A stretch of DNA of 63,083 nucleotides, counting the filler, from Folioceros fuciformis (Eukaryota), in NCBI GenBank assembly GCA_049999805.1. It is 25 parts of 25 records of this genome, joined end to end, with 100 filler letters (N's around TTAATTAATTAA, not from the genome) between each part and the next. Parts side by side here need not be neighbours in the genome. Positions count along the whole stretch, not along the records: positions 42,890 to 46,176 come from JBNGIO010000687.1; 24 more parts are not named here. One strand, written 5' to 3'. Shown piece by piece: positions 1 through 58,784 of the stretch. The position numbers and the translations under genes are program-made. Within the stretch, counting starts at the first letter, position 1. Each line of letters begins with the position of its first letter. Below the pieces are notes generated by a model. The model saw nothing but the letters and a program-made list of their open reading frames with translations, was not told where the DNA came from and did no database searches.

Positions 1-1023
1 CGGAGGAATCTTCATCCGAGGAAGATGACTCCCTCTTCTTCTTCCCCTTCCTAGGCCTGTTCTTCTTCTTGTCCTTCTCCCTCATTCTCTCCTTCTCCTT
101 CTTGAATCTCCCTTTGCCCCACGGATGAGACTCCTCATAATCGAGGGCTGCCCTCATAGCCCTGTCCACACCTTTTTCTACGAACAATTTCACATGGCCC
201 CCCATCCTTGATCCTAAGCCTCCAGCTAACCACCTAATGGCTTGTAAGTTTGAATGAGGTCCACAGCGATCCCGCAGGCTGTGGAACCTCTCCACATAGG
301 CCTGCAAGGTCTCCTTCCTCCTCCTCCTCAAGGCCTCCAGCTTGGATAGCACATAGCCCTCTACGTCTATCCCCCTGAACCGCTCACAAAAGGCCCTCTT
401 CAACACATCAAAAGTTGCTGGAAATGTACCAACCTTGAGATACTTTCTCCTGTACCACTTGCAGGCCCTCCACGCAGTACACCATAGAACAATTGGATGC
501 GCTGTGCATCCGCTGATTCTTGGTTAGCAAGGGTCAAATGCTCAAACCTCTCCACAAATTCATCCGGGTCCTCATACCCCTTCTTCTCCCCATACAAGGG
601 GTACAATTGCTTGGTGGACATTGCAACAGCTAGGGCTGCCATGGTGCCTGCACTCACCACTGCAGTTGCGGATCCAGCAGCTCCAACAACTGAAGTTGGG
701 CTAATGTTGCAAAATCCTTCAGCCCCTACACTCCTAATCACCTGCACCAGTCTAGGATGAAGACCAAGGAGCAGACTTGGATGAGGCCTCCCCCCAATAG
801 CTAAAAGTTGAGGGTCTTGTTCCAACGTGATTGATTCCCCCAAGATCTGCTGGTTGCTTGCCCCTCTCCTCCTCCTCTCTAGTGTATGCCCTGGCTGTGC
901 CCTCCTTAGCTCCCTCTCCACTGCTCTTTGCTCACTCTCCAATACTTGCTGCTGCCTCCTTACTTGAGCTTGAGCTCCCCCTTCAAAGCTAGAGTTGAAA
1001 TCTTCAGCTCCTATGCGGGGCAT
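1..1023 (-). pseudogene. Ty3/gypsy gag (frameshifted) of a tRNA-Asp-primed element
   Basis: KGYEDPDEFVERFE..RIQLFYGVLRG gag-like motif just downstream of the PBS; homologous copy at 45385-45527. Confidence 0.8.
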
Positions 1024-1098
1024 CCATCAACCCTGCACATTCCCTTGTACAGTCCCCTATCTAGGTCAGTCCTCTCCAAACCTTGACAGCAATGTCAC

Positions 1099-1116
1099 TC
1101 CCCGGCAACGGCGCCA
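1099..1116 (-). promoter_or_regulatory. Primer binding site, tRNA-Asp (TGGCGCCGTTGCCGGGGA)
   Basis: 18-nt complement of the plant tRNA-Asp 3' end, 3 nt from the LTR end CA at 1120. Confidence 0.92.
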
Positions 1117-1119
1117 AAA

Positions 1120-2010
1120 TGTGGAGTGATTTCTTGCACACCCAAGAACCACCAAGGGGCCACACTTCCCCTTATTATCGTTGCAGTCTTATGATTCGCT
1201 CCCAAGGGAGTGAACTAATGTCAAGGTTACCTACATCTCCCTAATTTCACCCTATCTATCAGCATATACCAAGTGCTACAGCAATAGGTTAGAATTCTCG
1301 GTCCTGTCTTTGGCTCCTACCACAACACCAACCCCAGCCTTAACAAAATGAGAACTCCAGCATTGTCTTCAGCCCTTGTTTCCAAGTCCAAGTATCAATC
1401 ACTTCAGTGCTGAGAGGAGGCTCCAGCCCCAAGTCTGGCCTCCAACTCTCAGCAGCTAGTGCTAGCTATCTCCGCAGTTGAACGAGAACCTCAACTTCAG
1501 CTAGCTCCTCACTCCAGCTTCAACACTTCATTCCACCACTTCAGCACTTCACCCCAGCATTTCAGTCCTTCACTTCAGCACTTCAGTCCTTCACTTCAGC
1601 ACTTTACTTCACCCTCCAGTCCCTCACTTCAGCCTCAAGCCCCTCACTTCAGCTCAACTCCTCACTTCAACACTTCCACTTCCAAAATCTGCAACTCAAC
1701 CCTTCTCTTCTGCAATTTGGAACACAATAGCCTTCCCTCTTGCAACCTTCCCTTCAAGGCAGAGGTGAGGCCTAGGGCTGGGTAGCCTCTTTGGCTCACG
1801 GCCCTGCAACCTCACCTCAACCAGCATACAAGGTGGTCAACCATTGCGGATCCGGCCACACGAATCTTGGAAGTCTTGGGATCCTCCACGTTCCCCTAGT
1901 GGTAAGGGAAATCAAGACCTTGGTTTAGCCTCAACCAGCTCAGTGCCCTAAGCCAGGAGTTCCGCACCCAAGGTCCAAGGAAATCACACCGTAGACAGCC
2001 CCCTCCTCAA
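1120..2010 (-). mobile_element. 5' LTR (truncated) of a TGTGG..CCACA gypsy family
   Basis: Abuts the PBS; homologous to the solo LTR at 8395-9520; contains CACTTCA-rich short repeats. Confidence 0.88.
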
Positions 2011-42395: not shown

Positions 42396-42789
42396 AGGAT
42401 CACAAGGTGTAATGACAGGTGAAGGGGCTTGCCCCTAGCTCTTAATTGTAAAGGATGTGTCTTTCTCTCGACCTGTCCACTCTTGTTCCCCGTTTGGACA
42501 AGTGCTGTAGGCCGGCCATGTTTCATGGCGTCTGGTAAGGTTGTGGGGAGGAGATATACGAGGGGGTGTGAGGGGAGTGTGTTCCCTTCTTTCTCTTCTT
42601 TGGGGTTAGTCTAGTGACTCTTGCCGAGTAGGAGGAGTCAATAGGGAAGTGTAGAAGGTAGTGGTGTCGTTGTTAGTTGTTGGTGTTGGAGTGAGAGAGC
42701 GAGTGAAGTGAGTGAGGGAAGTCGCAAATCTGAGAGGTTAGGGTCGTTGTAGTGACTGGAGTGAGTTTGTGGGCACCAAGAGAGGTGCA
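42396..42789 (+). mobile_element. Internal part of a TGTGG-type LTR
   Basis: Reverse complement of ~45750-46144. Confidence 0.78.
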
Positions 42790-42889
42790 NNNNNNNNNNN
42801 NNNNNNNNNNNNNNNNNNNNNNNNNNNNNNNNNTTAATTAATTAANNNNNNNNNNNNNNNNNNNNNNNNNNNNNNNNNNNNNNNNNNNN

Positions 42890-43121
42890 CCCCACAAGCA
42901 CACCCCACCCACTACTTTGTTTTCTCCACGGCCACGGGTTAGCTAAACGATTGTTCACTTTCTGAACTCCACCACTGCTATCTCCCGATCAGCTTATCTA
43001 ATCTAGTCCTATCTAACCTAGTTTTCTAATTACCTTTCCAAGGAATTCAATCAAAACTCAAAAAAAAACAAACAAATACTACGATTTTTCTAGGAGATCT
43101 ATCTACCATGTGATCTCCACA
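42890..43121 (-). mobile_element. 5' end of a TGTGGA-type LTR, nested insertion
   Basis: Ends CATGTGATCTCCACA, resembling 9400-9520. Confidence 0.65.
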
Positions 43122-44873
43122 AGTGGTGAGGTAGAAATCCTGTGGGAGGATTTGTTTGAACAAAGGCGAGGGAGGAGGGCTCAAGGTTGGCAGGGAAGAG
43201 GAGCGCGACGACCTGACAGGAGGCGAGCATAGCGATAGGATAGGCTAGAGTTATTGCATCTTAGAATAGTATACTGTAGGATCTGGAGAAGATGCTTTCT
43301 TGAACCTAATGCCGCTCATAATTAAGAGCGCCTGCCTATCCACAGACTCAAATTAATGGCGGCTACGGACCCGCCATCGTGTACAAGAGGTCTGTTGGTG
43401 CCTCACTGAATAGCAAGAAATTGGCATTCCAACCTGTGGAAGCCTGGCGATGGCCGCTACCGGATAGGGAGATCCGGGCAGGCGAGTGCATGCAGTGTTC
43501 CCAGGAGAAGGTATGGGCGATTTCTCTGCTCCACAACGGGTGGTATCGGGGACGAATCTGTGGGACTTCTCACCGAGTGGAAGGCAAACTTCCCTTATTC
43601 CCGGTAACCCACGTTGTGTGTCGCAATAGGAGTGAAGGGGAATGAATCCGTCGACCCGCAGAGTGGAGGGAGAACGTTCCTTCCCTTATTCCCTAGATCG
43701 ACTGAGCTGTGACTTGCGGTTGAGGTGAGGGGGACGAATTCGCCCATGAGCGGAGTGGAAGAAGGGGTGCGTGCTTCCCTTATTCCCTAACTCTTCAACT
43801 GCCCCCAAAACTACAATGTTGAGAAGTTAGTGGACGTGGAGACTGACTATGCACTGTGGCTGAGGGAGGGAAACGAATCCCCCATTGCGCGGAGTGGAGG
43901 AAGATTTCCTCCTTCTCTTATTTCACAACTGTCGGCTGCAACCCGGTCTTTGCATTGGTGTGAGTGAGTGTTTGAGACATGATTGTGTAAGAGGGAGAGA
44001 AGTGAAGAAGCGAGTGAGTCGAGACGAAGAGGAGTGAGTCACACCCGTGGCCGGGGTGAGAGAGACAAATCCGCCGACCCACGGAGTGGAGGGGAAGTTT
44101 CCCTTCCCTTATTTCCCGAACTGCTGGCTGCAGACGGGTGTGCTGTGAGACTAAGTGTTTGAGAAGAGTACTAAGGTTGAGATGAGATTGCTGGAGAATT
44201 CTTGGAGAAACCTCGGACGTTGTGGAACATTGTCAAAAGGTTGTGGTGTGAAGGATCGCTGAGAAACTGCTGGGGAATTGTGGACGCTGCTGAGGGTCAT
44301 AGACATTCGGGATCAAGTTTATGAGAAGTAACTGTACGTTGGAGATTTGGTGTGTGCTGGAAGCGCTGTGTGGGTGTGAAGAGTGAGGTGTGGCCGCCCT
44401 ACGGAACCAGTTGTCTAAGTGTGTATCTGTGAGTGAGAGAAGTGTTTAATAACCCCGACCCGCGACTAAGGGGGGTTTGGGTAGAAACCCGTGGAGGCAC
44501 CTGTGCCGGTATGTGTCAGTTAGGGCTTTGGGTGGGTCCCACCACGGTCGTGGAACCCACTGCCGGTTGTGGAAACCACCACCGGTCGTGGAAGTACTAG
44601 CGGTCGTGGAGACCCCAACCCCGGTCATAGAGTAGGGACCAGAGTCGTAGAGTAGGGTTCGTGGTAGCTAGGCTAACTGGGGGGTAGTGGTAGGGAGTAG
44701 AAGGTAGTAGAACTGGTGATAGATAGGGCCTAACCTAGGTAAGAGCCAGTTGTAGAAGAAACTTGTGTTACTTGGCACAAATCATTCCCTTGGGAGCAAA
44801 TCCCATGGCTACAACGACATAGAGGGCTTGTGTGGACCTCGTAGTGTCCTCAAACACATTATTTTCCTCCACA
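43122..44873 (+). mobile_element. Long 5' LTR region of a tRNA-Asp-primed gypsy element (left boundary uncertain)
   Basis: Ends TCCACA 3 nt before the PBS; 3' part homologous to 57145-57520. Confidence 0.7.
43532..44142 (+). ncRNA. Array of five putative structured RNA three-way-junction motifs
   Basis: Consensus GGGGA-CGAA-TCCG..CGGA-GT-GGARG..CTTCC-CTTA-TTCCC with variable but pairing stems and G-U pairs. Confidence 0.65.
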
Positions 44874-44876
44874 TTT

Positions 44877-44894
44877 TGGCGCCGTTGCCGGGGA
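44877..44894 (+). promoter_or_regulatory. Primer binding site, tRNA-Asp
   Basis: TGGCGCCGTTGCCGGGGA. Confidence 0.93.
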
Positions 44895-45043
44895 ATTTAC
44901 TGCTGTCAAGAACGTAGGTAGGAGTAACCCATAGCTTAGAGAGAGTCTAGGTAGTGGTAGCTTGATGGATGCCTCGGGTGAAGACCAGCGACTCTGAGCC
45001 TGATTGTGCATAAACACCGTTAGCAAAACGGCAACGCCAGGTA

Positions 45044-45527
45044 GTGGAGAGGTTGCAAAGGGTCGCCAGAAGGTCACAGCGGGCGAACACACCTGCTAGA
45101 CGAGGAAGACAAACAAGGAGCCAACTTGGAACTGAAGGTCAGATTTCATTTGAGTCAGATCCACAACTCTTGGGTTTGGAGGAGGTATCTTGGCCCTGGT
45201 ACCCCAATCCAAGCCCGCTGGTTGATCTCCAGTCCAGATTGCCTCGCTCAACTTCAGTCTAGACAAATTTTGTGGGTGTAGAAGTCAGTCCAAGCGCGGT
45301 AGTTGCATCTTCTACTACAAACGCTGTAAACACTACCACGGGAGCTATGACTAGCACTCCAGTTGCTGTAACCACTAAGTAGTCTTACCCATTGTGTGGG
45401 GAAAAGAAAGGGTATGAGGATCCTGACGACTTTGTCGAGCGTTTTGAGCAGCTGACCTTTGCCAACCAGGAGGCAGGGGACGCACAATGTGTTCAACTGT
45501 TCTACGGAGTTTTGCGTGGAGCCGTGG
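45044..45527 (+). pseudogene. Gypsy gag N-terminus, interrupted by an LTR insertion
   Basis: ISFESDPQLL, GEKKGYEDPDDFVERFE..QLFYGVLRG; homologous to 400-1023. Confidence 0.82.
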
Positions 45528-46176
45528 TGTGGAGGCAAAACCCCGGGCACTGATTGCCAACGGGTTACACCCTTAGTGGCCACACTTATCCCACTGTCGT
45601 TGAGACATTGGGTTTCGTTCCCACGAAGGAGCGATGGGGTTCCTTGCTGCTGTGGATGGAGGGTCGGACTTGATCGACTCGATGATGGATTCGAGGGCTC
45701 CCCTCCAGCTCCGATCAGCGTAGAACAGGCCTCGCTATTCAGCGGTCAGCTGCACCTCTCTCGGTGCCCACAAACTCACTCCAGTCACTACAACGACTCT
45801 AACCTCTCAGATCTGTGACTTCCCTCACACACTTCACTCACTCTCTCACTCCAGCACCAACACCAACAACTAACAATGACACCACTACCTTCTACACTTC
45901 CCTACTGACTCCTCCTACCCGGCAAGAGTCACTAGACTAACCCCAAACAAAAGGAAGAAGGGAACACACTCCCCTCTTGGATATCTCCCCCCTACAACCT
46001 TATCAGACGCCATGAAACATGGCCGGCCTACAACACTTGTCCAAGCAAGGAACAGGAGTGGACAGGTCGAGAGAAAGACACATCCTTTACAATCAAGAGC
46101 TAGGGGCAAGCCCCTACACCCTGGTCATTACACCTTGTGATCCTACCAGACACTATATAACCGGCAACACGCTGCC
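45528..46176 (-). mobile_element. 3' part of a TGTGG-type LTR inserted in gag
   Basis: TGTGGAGG at the breakpoint; U5 boxes at 45596-45622; matches 42396-42789. Confidence 0.78.
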
Positions 46177-46276
46177 NNNNNNNNNNNNNNNNNNNNNNNN
46201 NNNNNNNNNNNNNNNNNNNNTTAATTAATTAANNNNNNNNNNNNNNNNNNNNNNNNNNNNNNNNNNNNNNNNNNNN

Positions 46277-48260: not shown

Positions 48261-48553
48261 TGTTGAGTTATCGAGCTCTATATGAGCTAAACTCATGTGG
48301 TGTTAGTTATCCCAGTTGGGTTCATACTAGACTAGTTCTAGTTATTAGTGAACTTAGGATAGTGTAGATTATCCCATATTGAACCTGGAAGTTGTGTAGC
48401 CCTAAATGTACTACTTAAATGGAGACCTCGGACCTCCATAGTAAGACAGTGGTGATGTGTATTGTTTTCATGGTTGTGATCACCAATACCACCCTCTCTT
48501 CTCTCCTCTCCTCTCCTACACTTGCACGTAGACTGGAGTCGATCCTATTGACA
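48261..48553 (+). mobile_element. Copia family B LTR (3' or solo), no PBS
   Basis: Full TG..CA unit near-identical to the reverse complement of 56703-56995. Confidence 0.93.
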
Positions 48554-49572
48554 CCTAATTCCCTCATACCCTCAGGAGGGGCCACTTCCATTTCTGGCAC
48601 TTGCTCCTGAGGTGCTTCTGGCTCCACCTCGTTGGGTTCATGCTCCGCTGGCTCTTGAGCAGCTCCCTGCTCCTCCTGAGCCTGCTCCGGGGCTGCCTCC
48701 TGTGGCGCTGACCCGCTTCCTCTCCAAGCAATTTGGCCACTGGCCCGTCTCCTCTTGGCGGGAGTCTTTTTCCCTGACCCTGCCTTCCTCTTCTGCGTGG
48801 CGAGGGTCCCCTCCTCCAAGCTGTCCACACCGCCCGACTCCCAGCTGCTGGAGTCGGCTTCTATTGGCTCAGCGGGCTTCCACTTCACATCCCTTATCGG
48901 CCTCCATATATGCAACGAGGCGAGCACCTCCAGTTCAGAGACAAAGTTAGCATAACAGTATATATGGATTAGAAAGGGAGAGATCATCGAAGGTCGAGGA
49001 GAGGACAAGGTCAGATTCTGCCTCTCCTCGTCCATCCTCGCATACAGGATTTTCCCCCAATCCACCTTGCTCCCCTTGACAACCTCGTGCACAAACAGGA
49101 GCATATGATCAGATAGATAATCCTGCTTGCGAACTTGTAGGAAACTCAAGAACCATCTAGCCAGACCCATCAGCTGGGGGTTGGCCATATCGCGGACCAG
49201 CCACCCATTAGCTTCCTTCTTGGTGCTTGGTTTGAGCAACACCTCGGCGTCCGCTGTGCCGCCACGTTTCTTCAGGGACTCCAGCACCAGTTCCCCCTCC
49301 TCCTGCTGATCGCGACCATACACCCGCCTCACCAGCTCCAGGTTCCATTCCTGGGGCCTGCCGCGGATTCCCTCTTCTGGGACGGGCTCTCTCATCTTCA
49401 AGACGGACTCCCTGACCAGTTGCGGCGCTGCATGGTTCCACCTCTGGGTCATGAACCTGAGGCCTAGTTCTCCGACCAGTCCTCCGGCTCTGACCCTCCA
49501 GTGCTCCATGTTGGGCCATAGGAGCACGTCAATCTTCGATAGAGGAGGTTCTCCCTCCTGCTTAGGCACCAT
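48554..49572 (-). CDS. TE-associated accessory protein, copy 2, N-terminal ~340 aa, truncated by the LTR
   Basis: Open frame; homologue at 38905-39268; TATAAAA at 49812-49818 upstream on the same strand. Confidence 0.72.
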
Positions 49573-50574
49573 TACTCATGGCAGCAACTTTGAACGAGAC
49601 CTCATCCTGCCTTATCTCCCCTGTGCTCCAAACACTGCTGCCCCCCTGCACCTGAGGTTGCCCGGTGTTCTCTGCTCGCTCTGCTCCACTGCCTTAGTGC
49701 CCGCTCCGCTCCCGTCTGTCGTCACGCTCCGCAGCTACTCCCGTCCTCGCTCAAACCCGCGGACGCTCCCACCTCGATTACTGCCCAGGTTCCCCTTGAC
49801 TCTCTCGAGGGTTTTATACTGCCGTTCCCGTTCCACTACCGCCGGTTGGGCTACCGCCGATTGCCCTTCCACGACGGTCGCCCAACCGGCTACCGTCGCC
49901 TAGTCACAACACCCCGCTTTTTTGCCTAAGTCCACAACTACCTAAGCCCCTACCCCACTCCCTATTTCCTTATTTTTCAGGGGGGGGGGGTTGGCATATA
50001 TAGACACCTGAGTTGTCCCCGAACCACCAAGGGCCAAGGACACTCTTGCTCACACCTCCCTTGGTCCTGTCACTCATTCCCAACGAAACACTAAGGGCAA
50101 AGGAGACTTTGGATATAAATACCAAGTCTTATTCACATACTAAGCCGATTCACTCGCATCTTCACAAAAAAAATCACAACCTGTTCATTTTGCTCTTCAA
50201 AATGGTGTGAGCTCTCGATCTTTGGGGACCAGGGTGGTCTATGGAGGCGGTTGTTGTGGAGACGGTGATGAAGGTTAGGAAAAGGTATCCCAGTGACCCT
50301 GACTTTGTGAAGAAAGGGACGAGAGAACAATTGTGGGCTGAGAGCTCAACTACTCCTACCTGGGTGAAAGGGGAGCTTGCTCAGTTCCGCCACCGAGCAG
50401 GCCGCCTCCTAGAGGTTATGGGAATCAGGGTGGATACGGGAACCAGGGGGGCTATGGTAATCTAGGATATAGATNNNNNNNNNNNNNNNNNNNNNNNNNN
50501 NNNNNNNNNNNNNNNNNNTTAATTAATTAANNNNNNNNNNNNNNNNNNNNNNNNNNNNNNNNNNNNNNNNNNNN

Positions 50575-53500
50575 GTGGGAGAGCTTGGAGAGTCGTCCTG
50601 CGCTGGTGGAGTAGCAAGACTGTCCGTTGCGGCTAGGGCTTCTAGACTATCTTGAGTGGCGGGGTCTGCAGGTGGCAGCGGGTCGAGTTGGGCAGGTCTT
50701 TGGATCACTGGCTTCAGCATACTCACATGGAAGGTGTGACACATGCGCCAACCGGTAGGCAGCTCCAGTGTGTAGGCAACTTCGTTTACCTTGAGCAAGA
50801 TCGTGAAGGGTCCTGCAAATCGATACGCCAACTTGTGTTTTTGCTAGAGAAGTGACGGATACCTGTGAGGGCGGATTCGCAACCACACTAGTTGTCTGAT
50901 GCTGTAGGAGATTTCCCGCCAGTGCTTGTTGCTCAATTTCTTGGCCCGGTCTTGAGCTAACAGGAGATTCTGCTTGGCCTTGTGGACCTCATGCCAGATG
51001 TCCTCTGCAACCTCGGCTGCACTTCTCCACTTGGCTTTGCTAGCTGGCCAAAGTGCGGGTGGTGGTGGATTCTCACCATACAGCAATTTGAAGGGGGATA
51101 CTCCCGTGGCGGCGTGCTTGGAGGTATTTTAGGCAAACTCGAGGAGGGGTAAGAGTTCCTCCCACTTGCCTTGCTTGTCTTGTGTGTAATGCCGCAGCAT
51201 GTCTTCAAGCACTTGGATTTGACGCTCTGTCTGACCATCTGACTTGGGGTGGCATGTGGAGGACAAGCTCTGTCGGATGCCCAGGGTTTCGGTGAAGGAC
51301 CGCCAGAACCCTGCTGTAAACTTGGGGTCCCGGTCTGAGACAATATTCTGGGGGCACCCGTGAAGCCTGAAGATCTCCTATGTGAATATGTTGGCCAGTC
51401 GTGGAGTTGTAATGTTGGAATTTACTGGAATGAGATGGCAGCACTTGGACATTCTGTCCATAACCACCCATATGCTGTCCTTTCTTGTATGACTGCAGGG
51501 AAGGACAGTCACAAAGTCCATGGAGATGGTCTGGAATCTTCCCTCGGGTACTTGTAAAGGTAACAACTGGTGTTTTCTGATGCTCTGGTTTTGTCTGTTG
51601 ACAGGAGGTGCAGCTTCTGACCCACTGTATGCAATCATTTCGCACGCCCTCCCAGTGGGAATGGGCTTTCACCCGCTCATAGGTTTTGTCGATACCTAGG
51701 TGTCCAGAGATGGGAGAGTCGTTCAGATTTTGCAGGATCCCTCTCTGGGTCTCCTTTAGCTGTTGAGGAATCACCAGTCGACCCTTCTTGTAAACACAAG
51801 CATCTTTGAGTTGGTAAGTCTGCATCAAAGCTGTGGGAATGCCTTCTGCTATGTCTTGTACTAACTACTGGTAGATCTGCTGCAGGTGTGGATCTCTTGG
51901 GATGGCTGCTCGGACGAGCCTGATGGTATGTAGTTGAGAGGTTATCAGAGTGAGAGCTCGCCTGCTGAGGGCATATGCTACCGAGTTAGAGGCTCCAGTG
52001 ATGTACTTAATCTCAAAGTTAAAATCAGCTAAGTATTCTGACCACCTCCGCTGTCGTGCATTCAAGTTGGGTTGGGTGAAGAAGTGCTGGAGGGAATGGT
52101 GATCCGTGTGCACTGTGAACCTCTGTCCCAGTAGGTAATGTCTCCAGACCTTGAGTGCATGGATGATGGCAAGCAGTTCTTTGTCATGAACTGGGTAATT
52201 AACTTGTGCTCCCTGGAGCTTGTGGGACTCGTAGGCAATCGCCCATCCCTCCTGGGACAGAACAGCCCCAAGGGCGAGATCTGATGCATCTGTGTGCACA
52301 TGATAGATCCCCTTGGGATCTGCCACCACCAAAACCGGCCCTGAGCTCAGAGCTTGTTTCAGTTGGGTGAAGGCTAGCTGTGTTGCTGCATCCAGATTGG
52401 AAGATTTGCTGGGGAACTGTTTCAGGGCGTCGGTCAGGGGTAAGGCAATCTTACTGAACCCCTGGATAAACCGGCGGTAGAATCCTGCAAGTCCTAGGAA
52501 CCCTCTGATTTGGGTGATGTCTGTGGGTAATGACCATGTTGTGACTGCCTGGACCTTGCAGGGGTCCATCCCTCGTGACGATGTGTCCTAGGTAGTCCAC
52601 TTCCTTGCGCATGAAGGTGCACTTGCTCCTCTTGGCTAACATGTGGTGCTTTCACAGGAGTAATAGGACAACTCTAACCAGGTTTATGTGGGTCTCTGCA
52701 TTTGCAAAATGGATTAGGATGTCGTCGAGGAACACTTCTACGCCCTGCCCCAACAACGGCTGGAGGATGTCCTGCATCAGGCACTGGAAGGTTGCCGGTG
52801 CATTGGTGAGCCCCATGGGCATCACCACCCACTCATAGTGGCCATGGCGGGTTCTGAATGCTGTCTTGTGCTCATCCCCTTTCTTAACCCGTATCTGGTA
52901 GAAGCCAGAACGTAGGTCAATCTTGGTAAACCATGTAGAACCATGTAGCTGGTCTAGAATCTCATCGATTCTAGGCATTTGGTACATGTTCTTCACTGTG
53001 GCCCTATTTAGGCCTCTGTAATCTATACAGAGCCTCCAGCCACCGTTTGGCTTCGCCACTAGCAGCACCAGGGCTCCCTAAGGTGAGACAGATGGACGCA
53101 CAAAGCCTTGAGCCAAGAAGGCGTCAACTTATTTTTTTATCTCTACATTCTCCATGACTGACGTTCGGTATGGTGGAATGCTTACAGGTTTTGAGCCTGC
53201 TACAAGGTCGATGCTATGGTCCACTGGTCTCTAGGAGGAAGCTCTGCAGGGTCAGCAAACAACTCATTGAATTCTGTCAACAGTGACTTCATTTCCTCAG
53301 GAAGGGCTTCTTCCTCTCGAGCCTACTTCTCTGCTCGAGTTTTTGCTGTGCCTTCCAATGGGGAGACCTTTTTCATCTTGGCTATGTACAAGAAGCTGCC
53401 GTGGGCAGTTGCTTTATGTAATGTTGAGACAGCGAACAAGTGTTTGTCGGGGATGTAGGTTTCTCCTACTAACTTGTATTGCTGGTGGCCCACTTGCAGA

Positions 53501-55642
53501 CTTACTACATTGTTCAGCAGCCAGTCGATCTTGAGGTGCTAAGAATGGGCAGCTAACCAAGGCTTTCCTACGATCACATCATGGACTAGGCTAGGCATCA
53601 CAACCAGCTTCAACTCCTCAGTGTACCCCCTGGGAAAGTAAGGTGAGCTTCTACCCACTTCTCTGAGCTAGTATCCTTCTTCCCTAAGGCTGTCACTACT
53701 GTGGATAGCTAACCGGAGTCCTGGATGTGCAGATTTGCTCTATGAGCCATAGCTTCAAAGATATAGTGGTGGCTAGCCCCACTGTCCAGTAGGGCTGTGA
53801 CCGTGGCGCCCTCCAACAGCATCCTGAACTTGAGGGGGACATGGTGCAGGTTACAAGCATTTAACAAACAACAACCATTGCACCTGATGAGGGCTCTTCT
53901 TCAACTTCCTCGAGGGTGACCGAATGGCTCCTGCGGGGGTAGGGGTTGCTGTGAATGGGGCCGCTCCTGGTGGTGTTGCCTGTCTCCTTCAACCAAGCAA
54001 TGAACTCCTTACGGTGTGGGCAATTTCGAGAACCATTGTCAGTACCTGTACAGGTAAAACACATTTTTTTGTCGCTGTATTCCTTCTTCTCCTCTTCTGT
54101 CAAGATCTTGAACGCAGGCTTTTTGTTCACCACATTGGCTGTCCTCCCAAACTTCGGTCTCTAACCCGTGGGTGTGCCCAAGTGCTTGTACTTGTTCAGG
54201 CCATAGTTCATGGCAGCTCGGATCGCCTCTGCCAGAGTTCTAGGATTTGTCTAGTTGACGTTTGTGCGTAGCTCAAACCGGAGTCCGTCAATGAACTTTT
54301 CCACCTTCTGCTCTTCGTCCATCCTCGGCATATCCAGGGTGAGTTGGAGGAACTTGTCGCAATACTCCTGCACACTGCCCTGTTGATAAATTTTCCTAAA
54401 CTGATGATACAGCTCCTTCCTGTGGTTGACGGGAAGGAACTGTTCTAGAAAAATTTGGCGGAACAGGGGCCATGAGTACACCGGGGACTCCATTCCGAGG
54501 TCCACCTGTTTCTCCCGTTGTCGCCACCAGCGATATGCATATCCGTCCAAGGACATCACACAAAACTGAATCTTCTGGAGGTCATCCTTCTCACTGGCTG
54601 CGAGGTACTCGTCCATCTTATCTAGCCAGTCGTACACGCTTTGGGCTTCCTTGGCTTGGCCGTCAAAAGTGGTGGTCTTGATCTTCCGTTGGAGCTCTCG
54701 GTCTAGTTGTGGTTTGGGCTTAAACAAGTACTCGTGTTCTTCAGGTGCTCCTCCTCCTGCTTTACCTCTTTGTCACTCCCAGTGTTCATACCGCATCAGC
54801 TGTAACCTCTTGACCATTGCCTTGATGTCCTTGTCCTTCTTCTCTGCAGGTGTGAGTTCGATTTCGAGCCTCCTCTTCTCTTCCTGCTCGGCGCTCAACT
54901 CCCTGTCTTGGGAAGGCCCCGGGGAAACTCCCTTCGTTTCTCCAATCTCCCTTTTGCTTGCAGTGCCTTCAACGAGCGTCTCCAATCGACGAATGGAGCC
55001 GGGTGGAGGCGTTGGGGGACCGGACGTGGGAGGCGGGGAGTGTTCCAGCGATTGGAGCACCCCATTGAGTTGTCTTTCCAGACGGGCTTGACCCTCCCCC
55101 ACTTGCGACTCAACCCGAGTCAGCAAGGTTTCTACCTTCTCCAGTTTCGAGTCTTGCCGAGACATGGCACTGTACAGTTCAGCACAGGTGCATTCTACTC
55201 TCTCTATTCTATCTTCCAACCTTTGTAGAAGGTCGCCCGGTGTTGGTTCTCCCTGTCCGGGGGCTAACCTGCCTGGATCGTGGATGGGTGCAGGTCAGGA
55301 TCCCGCGTGGGCGCCCTGCTTCCTCGGGTGGCCTTGCATCCTGGCCACCGGTTCACTGTCGTATTCAACGGCACCCGCGTCCACTCTCACCTCCAGCTCC
55401 TCGTCTTCAGTCGGCGGAAGGGTGTCCGCCTGAGATTCTTGCAGATGCGGGTCGCCTGCCATCCCGCGGCGTCGCCTTCTAGGTTCTTCCTCTCGCCTTG
55501 GAGCATGCAGGGAGAATTCTTCTTCTTGCCGGGTTCTCGATCGCAGGCATCCTGCGATCCCTCTGGATGAGTCTTCTCCCTCACTCCCGCTGGACATCGC
55601 CCGCAGGACAGTTTGCAACCTTCTGGGTACGAAATCGCTCAT
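50575..55642 (-). pseudogene. Ty3/gypsy (chromovirus-type) gag-pol, degenerate
   Basis: Gag AYRWW..QQGSVQEY; LLDSGASH protease; WRLCIDYRGLN, FLDD; TDASD; HLGIDKT..CTSCQ; ISMDFVT; RFAGPF..FHVSMLKP. Confidence 0.96.
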
Positions 55643-55872
55643 GGCTTTTGTTGTCCTGCAGGAACAAGGTGGTGCTGTCTCCTCTATTCAGGACTTTCCC
55701 AAGGCAATTTCGAACTCCTCTCTCTGGTCCGCCGGAGCGCTAATGTTGGGCAACCCAATAGGTAGGCTCCTTGGCTGTGCGTTGCTGTTTCTCTTCAGTA
55801 TCCTCCGCCTGACTCTGTGAATTCTTGATGTTGGTGAGGTCGCCACAAATCACCGCTGGCTTTGGCGTGAGG

Positions 55873-56147
55873 TGTAGGGTTATTAAAGCCTAATGTGCTT
55901 AGACTAATGTGTTTAGTCTAAGATTAGTGTCTAGTTAAGTATCATTAGTTTAGATTAGCTTAAGCTAATCTGTAGGAAGCTTCTTGTGAAGCTTCCTAGG
56001 GAGCTCTTCTAGAGGGTATAAATACCCCCTTGAGCTCCCTTGCCAACCACACTCTCAATGTGACCTCTTTTTCTCCTCTCCTCTCTGCCTCCTCTTCTCC
56101 TCTCCTCCACCATGCTCCTCTAGTAATCCTACAAGTGGTATCAGAGC
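55873..56147 (+). mobile_element. Copia family A 5' LTR (55873-56133) + PBS (56136-56147)
   Basis: TGTAGG..CCTACA, TGGTATCAGAGC. Confidence 0.95.
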
Positions 56148-56290
56148 AGGTTGTGGAGCAAGACCATGAAGATGGCCATCTAGGAGGGGGNNNNNNNNNN
56201 NNNNNNNNNNNNNNNNNNNNNNNNNNNNNNNNNNTTAATTAATTAANNNNNNNNNNNNNNNNNNNNNNNNNNNNNNNNNNNNNNNNNNNN

Positions 56291-56995: not shown

Positions 56996-57144
56996 AAGAA
57001 TACTCAACATTTGTTGAGCACGGAACGTGGGATTTGGTTCAATTGCCTGATGGCAAGGTTCCTATTGTTTCTAAGTGGGTGTACAAGCTGAAGTTCAAGT
57101 CAAATGGAATGCTGGAGCGTTACAAGGCCATGTTGGTTGCAAAG
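56996..57144 (+). pseudogene. Copia RT start fragment
   Basis: EHGTWDLVQLP..SKWVYKLK..RYKAMLVAK. Confidence 0.85.
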
Positions 57145-57790
57145 TGTGGGGGGAAATATTGCACCCGGGGGTGCTGCGAGGTCCACACAAACCCTCGTTG
57201 TCGTTATAGGATTGGGATTCGATCCCAAGGGAATGATTTGTGTCAAATAACACAGGTTTCTTCTAAAAGTCAGTTACTACCTAGGTTGGACTTCAACTAC
57301 CCCGGCTCCACTACCTACAGGTTCATCTACCCCTACCTCCGTCCGTGGACTACCTAACAAACATACTCGGCTACTAGGGTGGGGGTCCCTACAACTACCG
57401 ACCCTTCAACTACCGAGGTAGGGGCTCAGCTACCGGTAGCCACTTCGGCTACCTCTGTGGTGGGTCCCACCCCAAACCCTAACTAATTATTTCCGGCACA
57501 GTCGCCGCCGCGGGTTTCCACCCACGGGTTTCTGTCCTAGACCTTCCAGATTCACATAGCTGGCTTATTCCATGCTCCTCACACATGCAAGGGCTGATCC
57601 TTGGGGAACAAAGCCTTGCGGATCAGCCACACCTCCCCACACACTCATGCACACTCCACTCACACACAAAACACACATAAGAGCTCTGGACCACAATTAT
57701 TCTCACAGGCCTGCCCCTAAGGGCTTCAATCTTCAGCAATGCCCACCAATCTTCAGCAAATCCTTCACAACTCTTCACAATCTCTCATGG
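57145..57790 (-). mobile_element. 3' part of a TGTGG-type gypsy LTR
   Basis: Homologous to the reverse complement of ~44480-44873. Confidence 0.75.
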
Positions 57791-58784
57791 GCTTGACACA
57801 AGTCTCACACCATGAGAGGTGTTGAATGTGAGAGAGGCAGGGTGTATGATATAAATTTTCTGCCTTAGATATTTTTACTAATTTTTGACTATTTGGATGA
57901 AAAAGACGACAATGCCATAACATTGTGGGAGAGAGACTTTGAGAAGAACTGGCGACATGAGAAGATTGTTGACCTCCTACTAGAACAGACAATTTATAAA
58001 GGCCATCTTCTAAAGTACCACTACAAATGATATGATCGCTATCACCTACATGAGAGAGAAAGCAACTATCTGTAAAAAGGGTCACCTGCATGGAACGGGT
58101 TTGACAAATACTTGCAACTGATAATAAATTCTTGCACATTGATGAAACATGGAGAACTTGGTGGAGGTGGAGGACTTGTCCTGAATCACATGTTAGTACG
58201 ACAGAACCAGTACCTTCAATAGGTAGGTTGTGATCATCTCCCAAGAGGACAGGTTGATGTCCTGTGGTTGGTGAGTATGACTAAAAATAACTTCTGTTGT
58301 AACATATATGTGACGTTGCTCCACTGTCTAAATACCATGAGGTATGAGCAGGTTTGGATGATGCCAAACATACAGTGAGCACTGTTGGAGTTGATGAAGA
58401 TTGCTTTTTGGAAGCTACATTAACTCCTTGTGAAGCCTCCTTGCGAGGTTCACCATTCTTCTTTTTGCGACAATCCTTTTTTTGTATGATTAGGAATCCT
58501 GCACCAATTGCATATAATGCCGCTCTTCTTTTTACCCTTTGAAGGTGTGGATGAAGAACTCTCTCCAATGTTGGTACTCGACGAAGAACATGGAGGACGT
58601 TGGGAAGAAAAACCTCGGCCTCTGCCTCGGCCTCTGCCTCGTCCTCTTCCTCTGCCTCTCTGCAAGTACATTACTTGTTGTTTATTAGGCCTGGAGTGAG
58701 AATGGCGCCTACTTGCCTCCTCCTGTAGAAGTGCTCCGATCAATTCAGAAACACTTATGTCAAAACCCTTTGTCCCATCATCTG
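57791..58784 (-). pseudogene. Copia gag-protease-preintegrase (KKKNGEP) with an RG repeat
   Basis: (RG)7, CNWCRIPNH, WYLDSGATSHIC, LWHCRLFHP, CETC. Confidence 0.9.

Follow-up and report, generated by a model that had tools for sequence, protein, structure and literature searches.

A diverged five-unit repeat array near the LTR of an apparently ATHILA-type Ty3/gypsy retrotransposon in Folioceros fuciformis

The repeat array and its host element

The window analyzed in this work (63,083 nucleotides from Folioceros fuciformis, filler included) consists of short contigs chained by N/TTAATTAATTAA linkers, and the usable context of the locus described here is therefore restricted to positions 42890-46176. 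This segment carries, on the + strand, a repeat array followed by part of a long terminal repeat (LTR), a primer binding site (PBS) and a remnant of gag. In the list below, Pa, Pb and Pc designate the helices of the RNA three-way junction that a previous, sequence-only reading had proposed for each unit of the array.

43532-44142, +: repeat array, units 1-5, with a core at each of the positions claimed for it
43532-43618 (core 43548-43602), +: unit 1; outer stem CACAACG (43532-43538) paired with CGTTGTG (43612-43618), extended Pa TATCGGGGA/TTCCCGGTA
43637-43693, +: core of unit 2; Pc of 8 bp, two of them G-U
43716-43802 (core 43730-43787), +: unit 3; 10-bp basal stem, GCGGTTGAGG (43716-43725) paired with CTTCAACTGC (43793-43802)
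43855-43940 (core 43868-43924), +: unit 4; 9-bp basal stem, 43855-43863 with 43932-43940 (RNAfold), and, after a Pc of 7 bp, an additional TTCT
44040-44142 (core 44058-44117), +: unit 5; outer 9-bp stem, CACACCCGT (44040-44048) paired with ACGGGTGTG (44134-44142)
44143-44444, +: stretch rich in G, T and A that carries short repeats of GAAG/GCTGA type and separates the array from the conserved 3' part of the LTR
44247, +: candidate LTR start TGTGAAGGA; reverse-complementing the LTR end gives eight of its nine bases
44445-44452, +: TTTAATAA, putative signal of TATA-like or poly(A) type immediately ahead of the well conserved part
44478-44873, +: conserved 3' part of the LTR, probably R-U5, ending in ...CCTCCACA, assigned by homology to related copies
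44877-44894, +: PBS TGGCGCCGTTGCCGGGGA, 3 nt (TTT) after the LTR end
45383-45553, +: fragment of the gag N-terminus, assigned by eye from peptide likeness

The location of the array in a gypsy LTR, as originally proposed, stands only in part. The PBS at 44877 is well established: its 13-nt core, TGGCGCCGTTGCC, occurs exactly at 44877-44889, after a CACA terminus and TTT, a distance within the 3-6 nt spacing of ATHILA elements, and together with the gag fragment downstream it confirms the + strand as the sense strand of the element. This core corresponds to what bioRxiv 10.64898/2026.03.20.713144 describes as the ATHILA tRNA-Asp/Asn PBS seed. It also agrees with the tRNA-Asp PBS of the Calypso/Diaspora group. 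The window holds two exact copies of the core, the second of which (1104-1116, - strand) is again followed by gag, in an open reading frame of contig 1-2010(-) that matches Retrotrans_gag with 32.7 bits (cut-off 24.1) and returns no match at E<=0.001 among longer proteins. The gag fragment at 45383-45553 resembles the peptide encoded just upstream of this frame and has no Pfam match by itself. It is also the only coding part of the element in its contig, which ends at 46176: at about 45530 the element is broken by a very abundant repeat, where depth rises from ~2e3 to ~2e5. The upstream part of contig 1-2010(-) contains a long hairpin that has 13 nt in common with the flank of unit 3; it yields neither significant similarity nor a covariance model match and is therefore of no help here.

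The 5' boundary of the LTR can be placed only tentatively. The conserved 3' part shares 67-75% identity with 57140-57524(-) and 71% with 1099-1213(-). In the former copy (57140-57820, - strand), strong conservation begins ~25 nt downstream of TTTAATAA and homology runs on for ~5 nt beyond the CACA terminus, to 44878; at the other end it starts only at about 44210-44250, abutting a copia integrase frame, and no target-site duplication is seen in this copy. Given this late start of homology, the array may lie just outside a 627-nt LTR, for instance among the 3' internal non-coding sequences of an element in tandem. If genuine, the candidate start at 44247 would likewise leave the array outside the LTR; it constitutes weak evidence, since GTGGAGG-like words are common throughout 44143-44444, and TGTGAAGGA has no second copy in the window. 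Most probably, the array occupies the interior of a long U3, some 340-950 nt upstream of the conserved R-U5 of a 5' LTR.

The association of the array with the element extends to other genomic copies. Logan contigs from DNA runs, with 85-96% identity to the window, connect unit 5 to the LTR body (43960-44307, 44071-44446, 44117-44367 and 44153-44356), and others span 43264-43733; hence, the array is part of a repeated element and not a chance flank, its connection to the LTR being shared by several diverged copies. Contigs from runs X1-X3, which represent one sample that is perhaps the source of the assembly, also contain joints at which units are skipped or swapped (43500 to 43718, spanning 217 nt, 44024 to 44102, 43898 to 43678 and 44119 to 43960), and a further joint connects 43879 to 44102 through 32 other letters. 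The number and arrangement of units thus differ among copies of the family within that sample. Another contig joins 44873 to ~43952 via 34 other letters, a configuration that could reflect either tandem LTRs or a nested insertion. Run X4, guessed to be RNA, provides essentially no cover of the array, only of the hyper-abundant repeat from ~45320 onwards, and has no bearing either way.

Conservation and distribution of the repeat units

The five units are real. They are old, diverged copies of a unit of ~60-100 bases, irregularly spaced at 89, 93, 138 and 190 nt from start to start, and all five share the layout Pa-CGAA-Pb-GT-Pc-CTTA-Pa' in a MAFFT alignment. As had been claimed, GT and CTTA are invariant and CGAA departs from its consensus solely by CpG-type changes (TGAA in unit 2, CAAA in unit 5). 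The alignment of the extended units spans 115 columns with a mean column identity of 64%, and 29 columns, GT and CTTA among them, are invariant. Conservation is unevenly distributed: pairwise identity reaches 0.92 in the junction strands and 0.90 in Pc, as opposed to 0.68-0.69 in Pa and Pb, 0.36-0.60 in the flanks and 0.37-0.45 in the loops, a contrast with the loops that is inflated by the uncertainty of their alignment. Each unit can accordingly be summarized by two near-invariant boxes, ..GAGTGGA.G.. (box A) and CTTC.CTTATT.C. (box B), the GGARG of the former being complementary to the CTTCC of the latter. The two-box pattern matches four of the five units against an expectation of zero (100 shuffles); unit 4 escapes it on account of a single C>T change.

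This unevenness bears on a rival account of the array, namely that its units have no function and stem from a segmental duplication decaying neutrally in a dead, methylated retrotransposon copy, the apparent boxes and stems going back to a single ancestral unit in which runs of purines and of pyrimidines were abundant by chance. Several features agree with such decay: the copy is degraded, with a fragmentary and interrupted gag; substitutions among units are rich in transitions (63 to 45 transversions); the CGAA variants are of CpG type; and unit number varies among copies in a minisatellite-like manner. Uniform decay, however, does not predict 20 columns at 0.90-0.92 identity next to loops at 0.37-0.45 and Pa/Pb at 0.68, nor does neutral decay account easily for the persistence of the units in several diverged copies of the family. 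We therefore regard this explanation as doubtful, though still worth entertaining.

Tandem Repeats Finder does not call the array, because its copies are too diverged and their spacing too irregular. Direct-repeat search, BLAST self-comparison and a covariance model of the five units, run with filters off, found no sixth copy in the window; the units themselves score 58-90 bits with this model and the next best stretch 12.6 bits. Two-box patterns were also retrieved from metagenome contigs (14 loci, with two covariance model matches at E<=10, of 15.5 and 14.8 bits), from viral contigs (111 stretches) and from contigs of prokaryote genomes (9 loci). Applied to 89 of these loci (the first 80 viral and the 9 prokaryote ones), the covariance model gave three matches at E<=1, the best of them partial and of 21.1 bits. 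All these matches are single and none forms an array, and they were dismissed as chance, an outcome that is expected for a lineage-specific eukaryotic repeat. A tRNA-like origin was likewise discarded, as ARAGORN finds nothing in 42890-46176. Judged by title and opening lines of the abstract, none of the papers retrieved on this topic from one open-access library deals with such a three-way-junction array in LTR retrotransposons.

Folding and covariation

The sequence-only reading had interpreted each unit as a selected RNA structure. In the form considered here, this interpretation would make every unit a sense-strand three-way junction, located in a U3-derived 3' untranslated part of the genomic RNA or in a 3' internal non-coding region, that binds Gag/nucleocapsid or an export or stability factor through its invariant CGAA, GU and CUUA strands. 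Several of the observations on which it was based are sound. The basal stems listed for units 1, 3 and 5 are present, and with that of unit 4 they amount to four units with a flanking stem of their own, of 7-10 bp. Pairing is mostly retained, as had been stated: standard pairs occupy 92.5% of the 80 core cells on the proposed helices and 90.8% of the 120 cells that include the basal stem, and fall to 48-68% when the 3' partners are slid as a control. In unit 1, Pb is a longer, 8-bp hairpin; in unit 2, the change of CGGA to CAGA leaves a C.A mismatch in Pb; and in unit 5, Pa contains an A.C mismatch at 44061, where most other genomic copies have G, which restores a G-C pair. RNAalifold recovers the three-way junction plus basal stem as the consensus of the five units, with an energy of -14.56 versus -5.08 +/- 2.16 in column-shuffled alignments, none of which (0/300) is as low (z -4.4 on the + strand, -2.0 on the - strand). 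The selected-junction interpretation can also point to the junction strands being the most conserved class of positions while the loops vary in both length and sequence, to double changes in 6 of 26 pairs (3 of 16 in the core, among five paralogues of one ancestor) and to two stretches of other copies that, together with adjoining window bases, can again be read as Pc hairpins, one of 6 bp and another of 9 bp, whose inner letters differ.

Other measurements count against it. The RNAalifold covariation term is +0.92, so that covariation lends no support to the junction, and five units that are all paralogues of a single ancestor hold too little power for covariation in any case. Among 500 shuffles, 21-32 score as high in pairing and covariation (26/500 and 22/500 for the covariation score), a marginal excess of a kind that is common among related sequences without structure. 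The isolated cores have folding z-scores of -1.14, -0.82, -0.50, -1.28 and -0.49 against dinucleotide shuffles for units 1 to 5 (mean -0.85), and a stability not above that of such shuffles also favors neutral decay; for the extended units, the corresponding values are -3.2, -1.8, -1.3, -1.7 and -2.6. The junction is close to the minimum free energy (MFE) in two of the five units. The MFE structure of extended unit 1 contains it. The energies of junction and MFE are -15.2 and -16.2 kcal/mol in unit 1, and -15.9 and -17.3 kcal/mol in unit 5. In units 2, 3 and 4, by contrast, the junction is less stable than the MFE structure by 5-7.5 kcal/mol (5 kcal/mol in unit 2), with Pa and Pb pair probabilities of at most 0.12, unit 4 Pa being left out. 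Extended unit 3 keeps its basal stem and Pa in the MFE structure, with Pb and Pc shifted in register, and its isolated core folds without the junction; the isolated core of unit 4 assigns Pb a probability of ~0. When the whole array is folded (z -1.5), the junction survives in unit 1 alone.

A Pc arm finds nearly as good a partner in another unit as in its own (5.6 versus 6.6 bp). The abundance of G-U pairs had been put forward as an argument for folding on the + strand, and this argument fails: in register, 23 cells are G-U and 3 are A.C, the slid controls are similarly rich in G-U (17-33, versus 5-17 A.C), and the excess is thus largely compositional. Taken at its center, the claim of a selected RNA three-way junction receives weak support from these models and is neither shown nor refuted by them; in our judgment it is improbable. 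Its broader form seems to us equally unlikely: here the units would constitute a three-way-junction RNA module not described before, reiterated in ATHILA-type plant retrotransposons, each on its basal stem, carried in the U3-derived 3' end of the genomic RNA and read through CGAA/GU/CUUA by a protein such as Gag/nucleocapsid or the export or decay machinery.

A more specific variant of the RNA interpretation, by analogy with known ribozymes, would be that the unit is a new self-cleaving ribozyme. Hammerhead ribozymes occur in the LTRs of plant retrozymes, and the unit resembles them in arranging three helices around a small junction within a plant LTR-type element. This precedent, and the three-way topology with its short conserved junction strands, are all that speaks for self-cleavage. 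Unlike the hammerhead, the units join their helices by CGAA, GU and CUUA, and CUGANGA, already reported as absent, has no match to a regular-expression search on either strand of 43500-44160. The sequence-only reading had also assigned the units to no recognized family and had proposed Rfam as a check, which bears it out: there are no matches at the gathering score in the whole window, and the ten obtained in 43300-44400 with permissive filters at E<=10 (10.8-16.8 bits, far below the gathering score) include no ribozyme family. Neither twister, twister-sister, pistol, hatchet, HDV-like nor hammerhead ribozymes were identified by their Rfam covariance models. Considering also the weak fold statistics, a ribozyme is highly improbable.

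A proposed variable repeat module of the element

Since the evidence does not show selection of the fold, we favor an ordinary variable repeat module. According to this reading, to which the sequence data lend roughly even odds, the array would be a hypervariable module of an ATHILA-type Ty3/gypsy LTR retrotransposon, variable in unit number and composed of reiterated cis-regulatory sites. Duplication and unequal recombination, or template switching in the course of reverse transcription, would give rise to the units, which would later diverge chiefly in the two hairpin loops and in the spacers. In analogy with other LTR U3 repeats, the boxes might then be bound as DNA, as a series of sites distal to the promoter through which transcription of the element is tuned, and the three-armed fold, easily drawn from purine-rich and pyrimidine-rich arms, would not itself be the selected feature. 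That the array belongs to U3, that transcription starts at about 44480 and that the boxes are cis-regulatory is inference.

Several observations are left unexplained by DNA-level binding sites. Complementarity is kept between the GGARG of box A and the CTTCC of box B, and four units possess flanking stems of their own, with some double changes across the pairs. The consensus fold also exceeds column shuffles by more on the + strand than on the - strand. The folding of the extended units, better than that of dinucleotide shuffles (z -1.3 to -3.2), counts against a DNA-level reading.

A variable repeat module has precedents. Tandem repeats in U3 are described as frequent in retroviruses and able to regulate transcription, with an early find in tobacco Tnt1 (PMC3601003), and in plant LTRs the variable part with a regulatory role is U3 (PMC10794571). 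Repeats of the Tnt1 type are reported to differ from one subfamily to another, with a presumed role in tuning transcription (PMC3601003; PMC10794571). The array resembles them, Tnt1 U3 boxes for instance, in comprising reiterated units upstream of a promoter core, provided that it indeed lies inside the LTR, and differs from them in that its units are longer (~60-100 nt), irregularly spaced and strongly diverged, and have an internal palindromic layout. A second parallel is found in the Tat/Ogre lineage, in whose non-coding parts hypervariable tandem repeats are said to be common and are attributed to illegitimate recombination or abnormal strand transfer (PMC7004042). Like the Tat/Ogre 3' untranslated repeats (Macas et al. 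2009, as cited in PMC7004042), the units described here are non-coding, adjoin an LTR and vary in number among copies. In contrast to them, they are not homogeneous head-to-tail monomers, they lie upstream of the LTR that precedes the PBS, and this PBS is that of the ATHILA lineage. Its core, TGGCGCCGTTGCC, follows a short AT-rich spacer as in ATHILA, Calypso and Diaspora, and the tRNA-Asp PBS and a gag preceded by a long non-coding leader, which measures ~500 nt in contig 1-2010, recall Diaspora. The LTR terminus, on the contrary, reads ...CCACA and not TATCA as in Brassicaceae ATHILA, and the lineage is placed here by its PBS.

The case of this array illustrates how readily repeats built of purine and pyrimidine runs yield convincing multi-helix folds, and hence why proposals of ribozymes or riboregulators call for composition-matched controls first. 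Should the units be no more than U3 or other non-coding repeats, they represent another instance of LTR retrotransposons reiterating and reshuffling short modules beside their promoters, and their value resides in the annotation of the family and little more. If, on the other hand, the fold were selected, the array would define a new class of structured RNA in plant retroelements, a counterpart in plants of the reiterated elements that serve simple retroviruses in export and packaging, through which the poorly understood export, stabilization and packaging of plant LTR retrotransposon RNAs would become testable.

Host element of the array

At 24 sites, one every 1.3-6.4 kb (e.g. 42790-42889 and 46177-46276), the window is interrupted by a linker, N44-TTAATTAATTAA-N44; it hence represents short contigs joined in a chain, in which adjacent segments are not true genomic neighbours. 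Since linkers flank 42890-46176, the true context of the five-unit array (43532-44142, + strand) is limited to that interval, in which reading of the sequence places two landmarks:

ending at 44873, + strand: 3' end of the LTR, ...CCTCCACA
after a 3-nt spacer following the LTR end, + strand: primer binding site (PBS), TGGCGCCGTTGCCGGGGA

The only other PBS copy in the window, at 1104-1116(-), precedes a ~500-nt leader and then a gag ORF, which scores 32.7 bits for Retrotrans_gag (cut-off 24.1), in the related contig 1-2010(-), and the peptide of 45383-45553 is similar by eye to the stretch immediately upstream of that ORF. Excerpts of the literature quote a 13-nt PBS core (tRNA-Asp/Asn) with an AT-rich 3-6 nt spacer for ATHILA elements (bioRxiv 10.64898/2026.03.20.713144) and a tRNA-Asp PBS with a long leader for Diaspora/Calypso (PMC1142308). 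The match of PBS core, spacer and leader to these descriptions identifies the array's element, as judged from sequence, as an ATHILA-type Ty3/gypsy retrotransposon with + as its sense strand; the PBS and the gag-like peptide, both on +, bear out the orientation proposed in the sequence-only reading.

At ~45530 the contig enters a highly abundant repeat, with k-mer depth roughly 100-1000x higher. In X1 and X2, two of the DNA sequencing runs compared with the window, summed k-mer depth is ~1e5 or more over 45530-46176 and its inverted counterpart at 42396-42789, versus ~1e2 elsewhere in the contig; two contigs end in this same repeat, 90% identical and in opposite orientation, and the repeat is the sole part covered by X4, a run guessed to be RNA. 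A separate Ty3/gypsy element, unrelated to that of the array, occupies 50575-56190(-) (Retrotrans_gag, 59 bits; RT, 108 bits; integrase zinc domain; Tf2-type SH3 domain), and a 386-aa open frame at 48415-49575(-) matches Pfam Transposase_32 ('putative plant transposon protein') weakly (16.6 bits, under the cut-off of 45).

Shared sequence of the units

The five-unit array is confirmed. Direct reading and MAFFT alignment recover the units at 43548-43602, 43637-43693, 43730-43787, 43868-43924 and 44058-44117 with the common layout Pa-CGAA-Pb-GT-Pc-CTTA-Pa', where Pa, Pb and Pc are proposed helices joined by junction strands, of which GT and CTTA are indeed invariant and CGAA is otherwise only TGAA or CAAA. 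Homology extends past the cores, since 5' and 3' flanks can be aligned among units 3, 4 and 5, and outer flanks between units 1 and 5. In the five extended units 29 of 115 columns are invariant (mean column identity 64%), and these are concentrated in two boxes, ..GAGTGGA.G.. (box A) and CTTC.CTTATT.C (box B), inside which the GT and CTTA strands fall. Start-to-start distances are 89, 93, 138 and 190 nt, and the array is not among the calls of Tandem Repeats Finder. The two-box pattern matches 4/5 units (0 expected), and a covariance model built from all five gives them 58-90 bits and finds no further unit in the window (best other score 12.6 bits).

A possible sixth, degenerate unit (GGGAGA-TCCG...CGAGTG...TTCCC), lacking the Pc hairpin and missed by the covariance model, lies a short way 5' of unit 1 at 43448-43495. 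Box A of unit 4, AGTGGAGGAA (43893-43902), is one base off the reverse complement of the terminal 10 nt of the LTR, TGTGGAGGAA (44864-44873), and box B, CTTATTTCC, is similar to ATTATTTTCC immediately before the LTR terminus; this likeness may be a coincidence of a purine-/pyrimidine-rich region or a sign that the units originated from LTR-end sequence.

Assessment of the RNA fold

On balance, our results do not favour a selected RNA three-way junction. RNAalifold finds Pa, Pb, Pc and a basal stem, the outer flanking helix, and the stems do mostly keep pairing, as had been proposed (92.5% of 80 core cells and 90.8% of 120 with the basal stem; 48-68% in slid controls). Consensus energy is -14.56 versus -5.08 +/- 2.16 in column-shuffled alignments, 0/300 being as low (z -4.4; 1/300 for the core alone; no stronger than z -2.0 on the - strand), but this z is inflated because shuffling breaks the purine/pyrimidine runs that let such sequences pair. 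Against dinucleotide shuffles, extended units 1-5 give z of -3.2, -1.8, -1.3, -1.7 and -2.6 (- strand, -0.9 to -2.1), and the cores alone are no more stable than their shuffles (-1.14, -0.82, -0.50, -1.28 and -0.49). Double changes occur in 6/26 pairs, and an A-T to C-G exchange can be read by eye between unit 1 and unit 5 in their outer stems; the alifold covariation term, +0.92, counts against the fold, and pairing plus covariation is equalled by 21-32/500 shuffles, a level that the tool's calibration finds common in related structureless sequences. Only units 1 and 5 hold the junction within 1.4 kcal/mol of the MFE; for units 2, 3 and 4 it costs 5-7.5 kcal/mol more than the MFE (the unit 4 figure without Pa), and in the whole-array fold (z -1.5) unit 1 alone keeps the junction. 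Pc arms pair over an average of 5.6 bp with non-cognate partners versus 6.6 bp with cognate ones, and the G-U excess earlier taken as strand evidence is largely compositional, its 23:3 ratio over A.C being near that of slid registers (17-33 vs 5-17).

The junction strands (0.92 identity) and Pc (0.90) are conserved far above Pa and Pb (0.68-0.69), loops (0.37-0.45) and flanks (0.36-0.60), which counts in favour of the fold; with both sides considered, a selected sense-strand RNA module seems unlikely to us. Purely neutral decay of the units, to be weighed against this same uneven conservation, we regard as doubtful. That the units are ribozymes is highly improbable: in agreement with the claim of no known family, nothing in the whole window reaches gathering score in Rfam, no ribozyme family appears among the 10 weak matches (10.8-16.8 bits, E<=10) in 43300-44400, and CUGANGA is absent from both strands of 43500-44160, as previously stated. 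No tRNA-like gene was found in 42890-46176, and scanning metagenome, viral and prokaryote collections with the pattern gave single chance matches only.

Position of the array relative to the LTR

Three DNA runs (X1-X3), all of one sample that may be the assembly's own source, provide Logan contigs that span the entire stretch with 80-99% identity. Some pieces, 85-96% identical, run from unit 5 into the LTR body (43960-44307, 44071-44446, 44117-44367 and 44153-44356) and others connect across 43264-43733; such bridges in diverged copies indicate that the array belongs to the repeated element and is not a chance flank. The proposed location in a gypsy LTR thus stands as regards the gypsy element and linkage to the LTR body, but the data leave the 5' boundary of the LTR ambiguous. 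Copy B, a related LTR body at 57140-57820(-), can be aligned only from ~44210-44250 onward, where it adjoins a copia integrase ORF. A candidate LTR start, TGTGAAGGA at 44247, agrees with the reverse complement of the LTR end at 8/9 bases, but is weakened by the abundance of GTGGAGG-like words in the region, box A itself being one. A long LTR with the array inside U3 is the probable arrangement; less probably, the element is a tandem or recombinant one that has the array in its internal 3' non-coding region. Strong conservation with copy B starts near 44478, shortly after TTTAATAA, from which we infer the start of R-U5, and by this the transcription start would lie about 340-950 nt downstream of the array.

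Copy B is 62% identical to the LTR body and lacks the array. It is wedged between the copia integrase ORF, which shares its strand, and a copia RT fragment that lies on the opposite one; no target-site duplication was found there, and the locus is rearranged or chimeric. The conserved 3' part of the LTR holds a 19-nt (37-nt) tandem repeat, CCACCACCGGTCGTGGAAA x2.9 (44539-44614), of which copy B has a diverged version.

A proposed variable repeat module

Joints in Logan contigs skip or swap units (43500>43718, with 217 nt skipped; 44024>44102; 43898>43678; 44119>43960; and 43879>44102, with 32 other letters between), and hence unit number and order vary within the family, much like the hypervariable repeats described for Tat/Ogre elements in an excerpt of PMC7004042. 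At many positions where the window has C, all X3 contigs carry T, a pattern absent from X1 and X2 of that sample and such as a bisulfite-type library would give.

The best-supported reading, to which we give about even chances, is that of a hypervariable repeat module, variable in unit number, that belongs to the non-coding regulatory portion of an ATHILA-type LTR. For the two conserved boxes the most plausible role would be that of reiterated sites acting at the DNA level, as in the other U3 repeats for which passages of PMC3601003 and PMC10794571 offer precedent.
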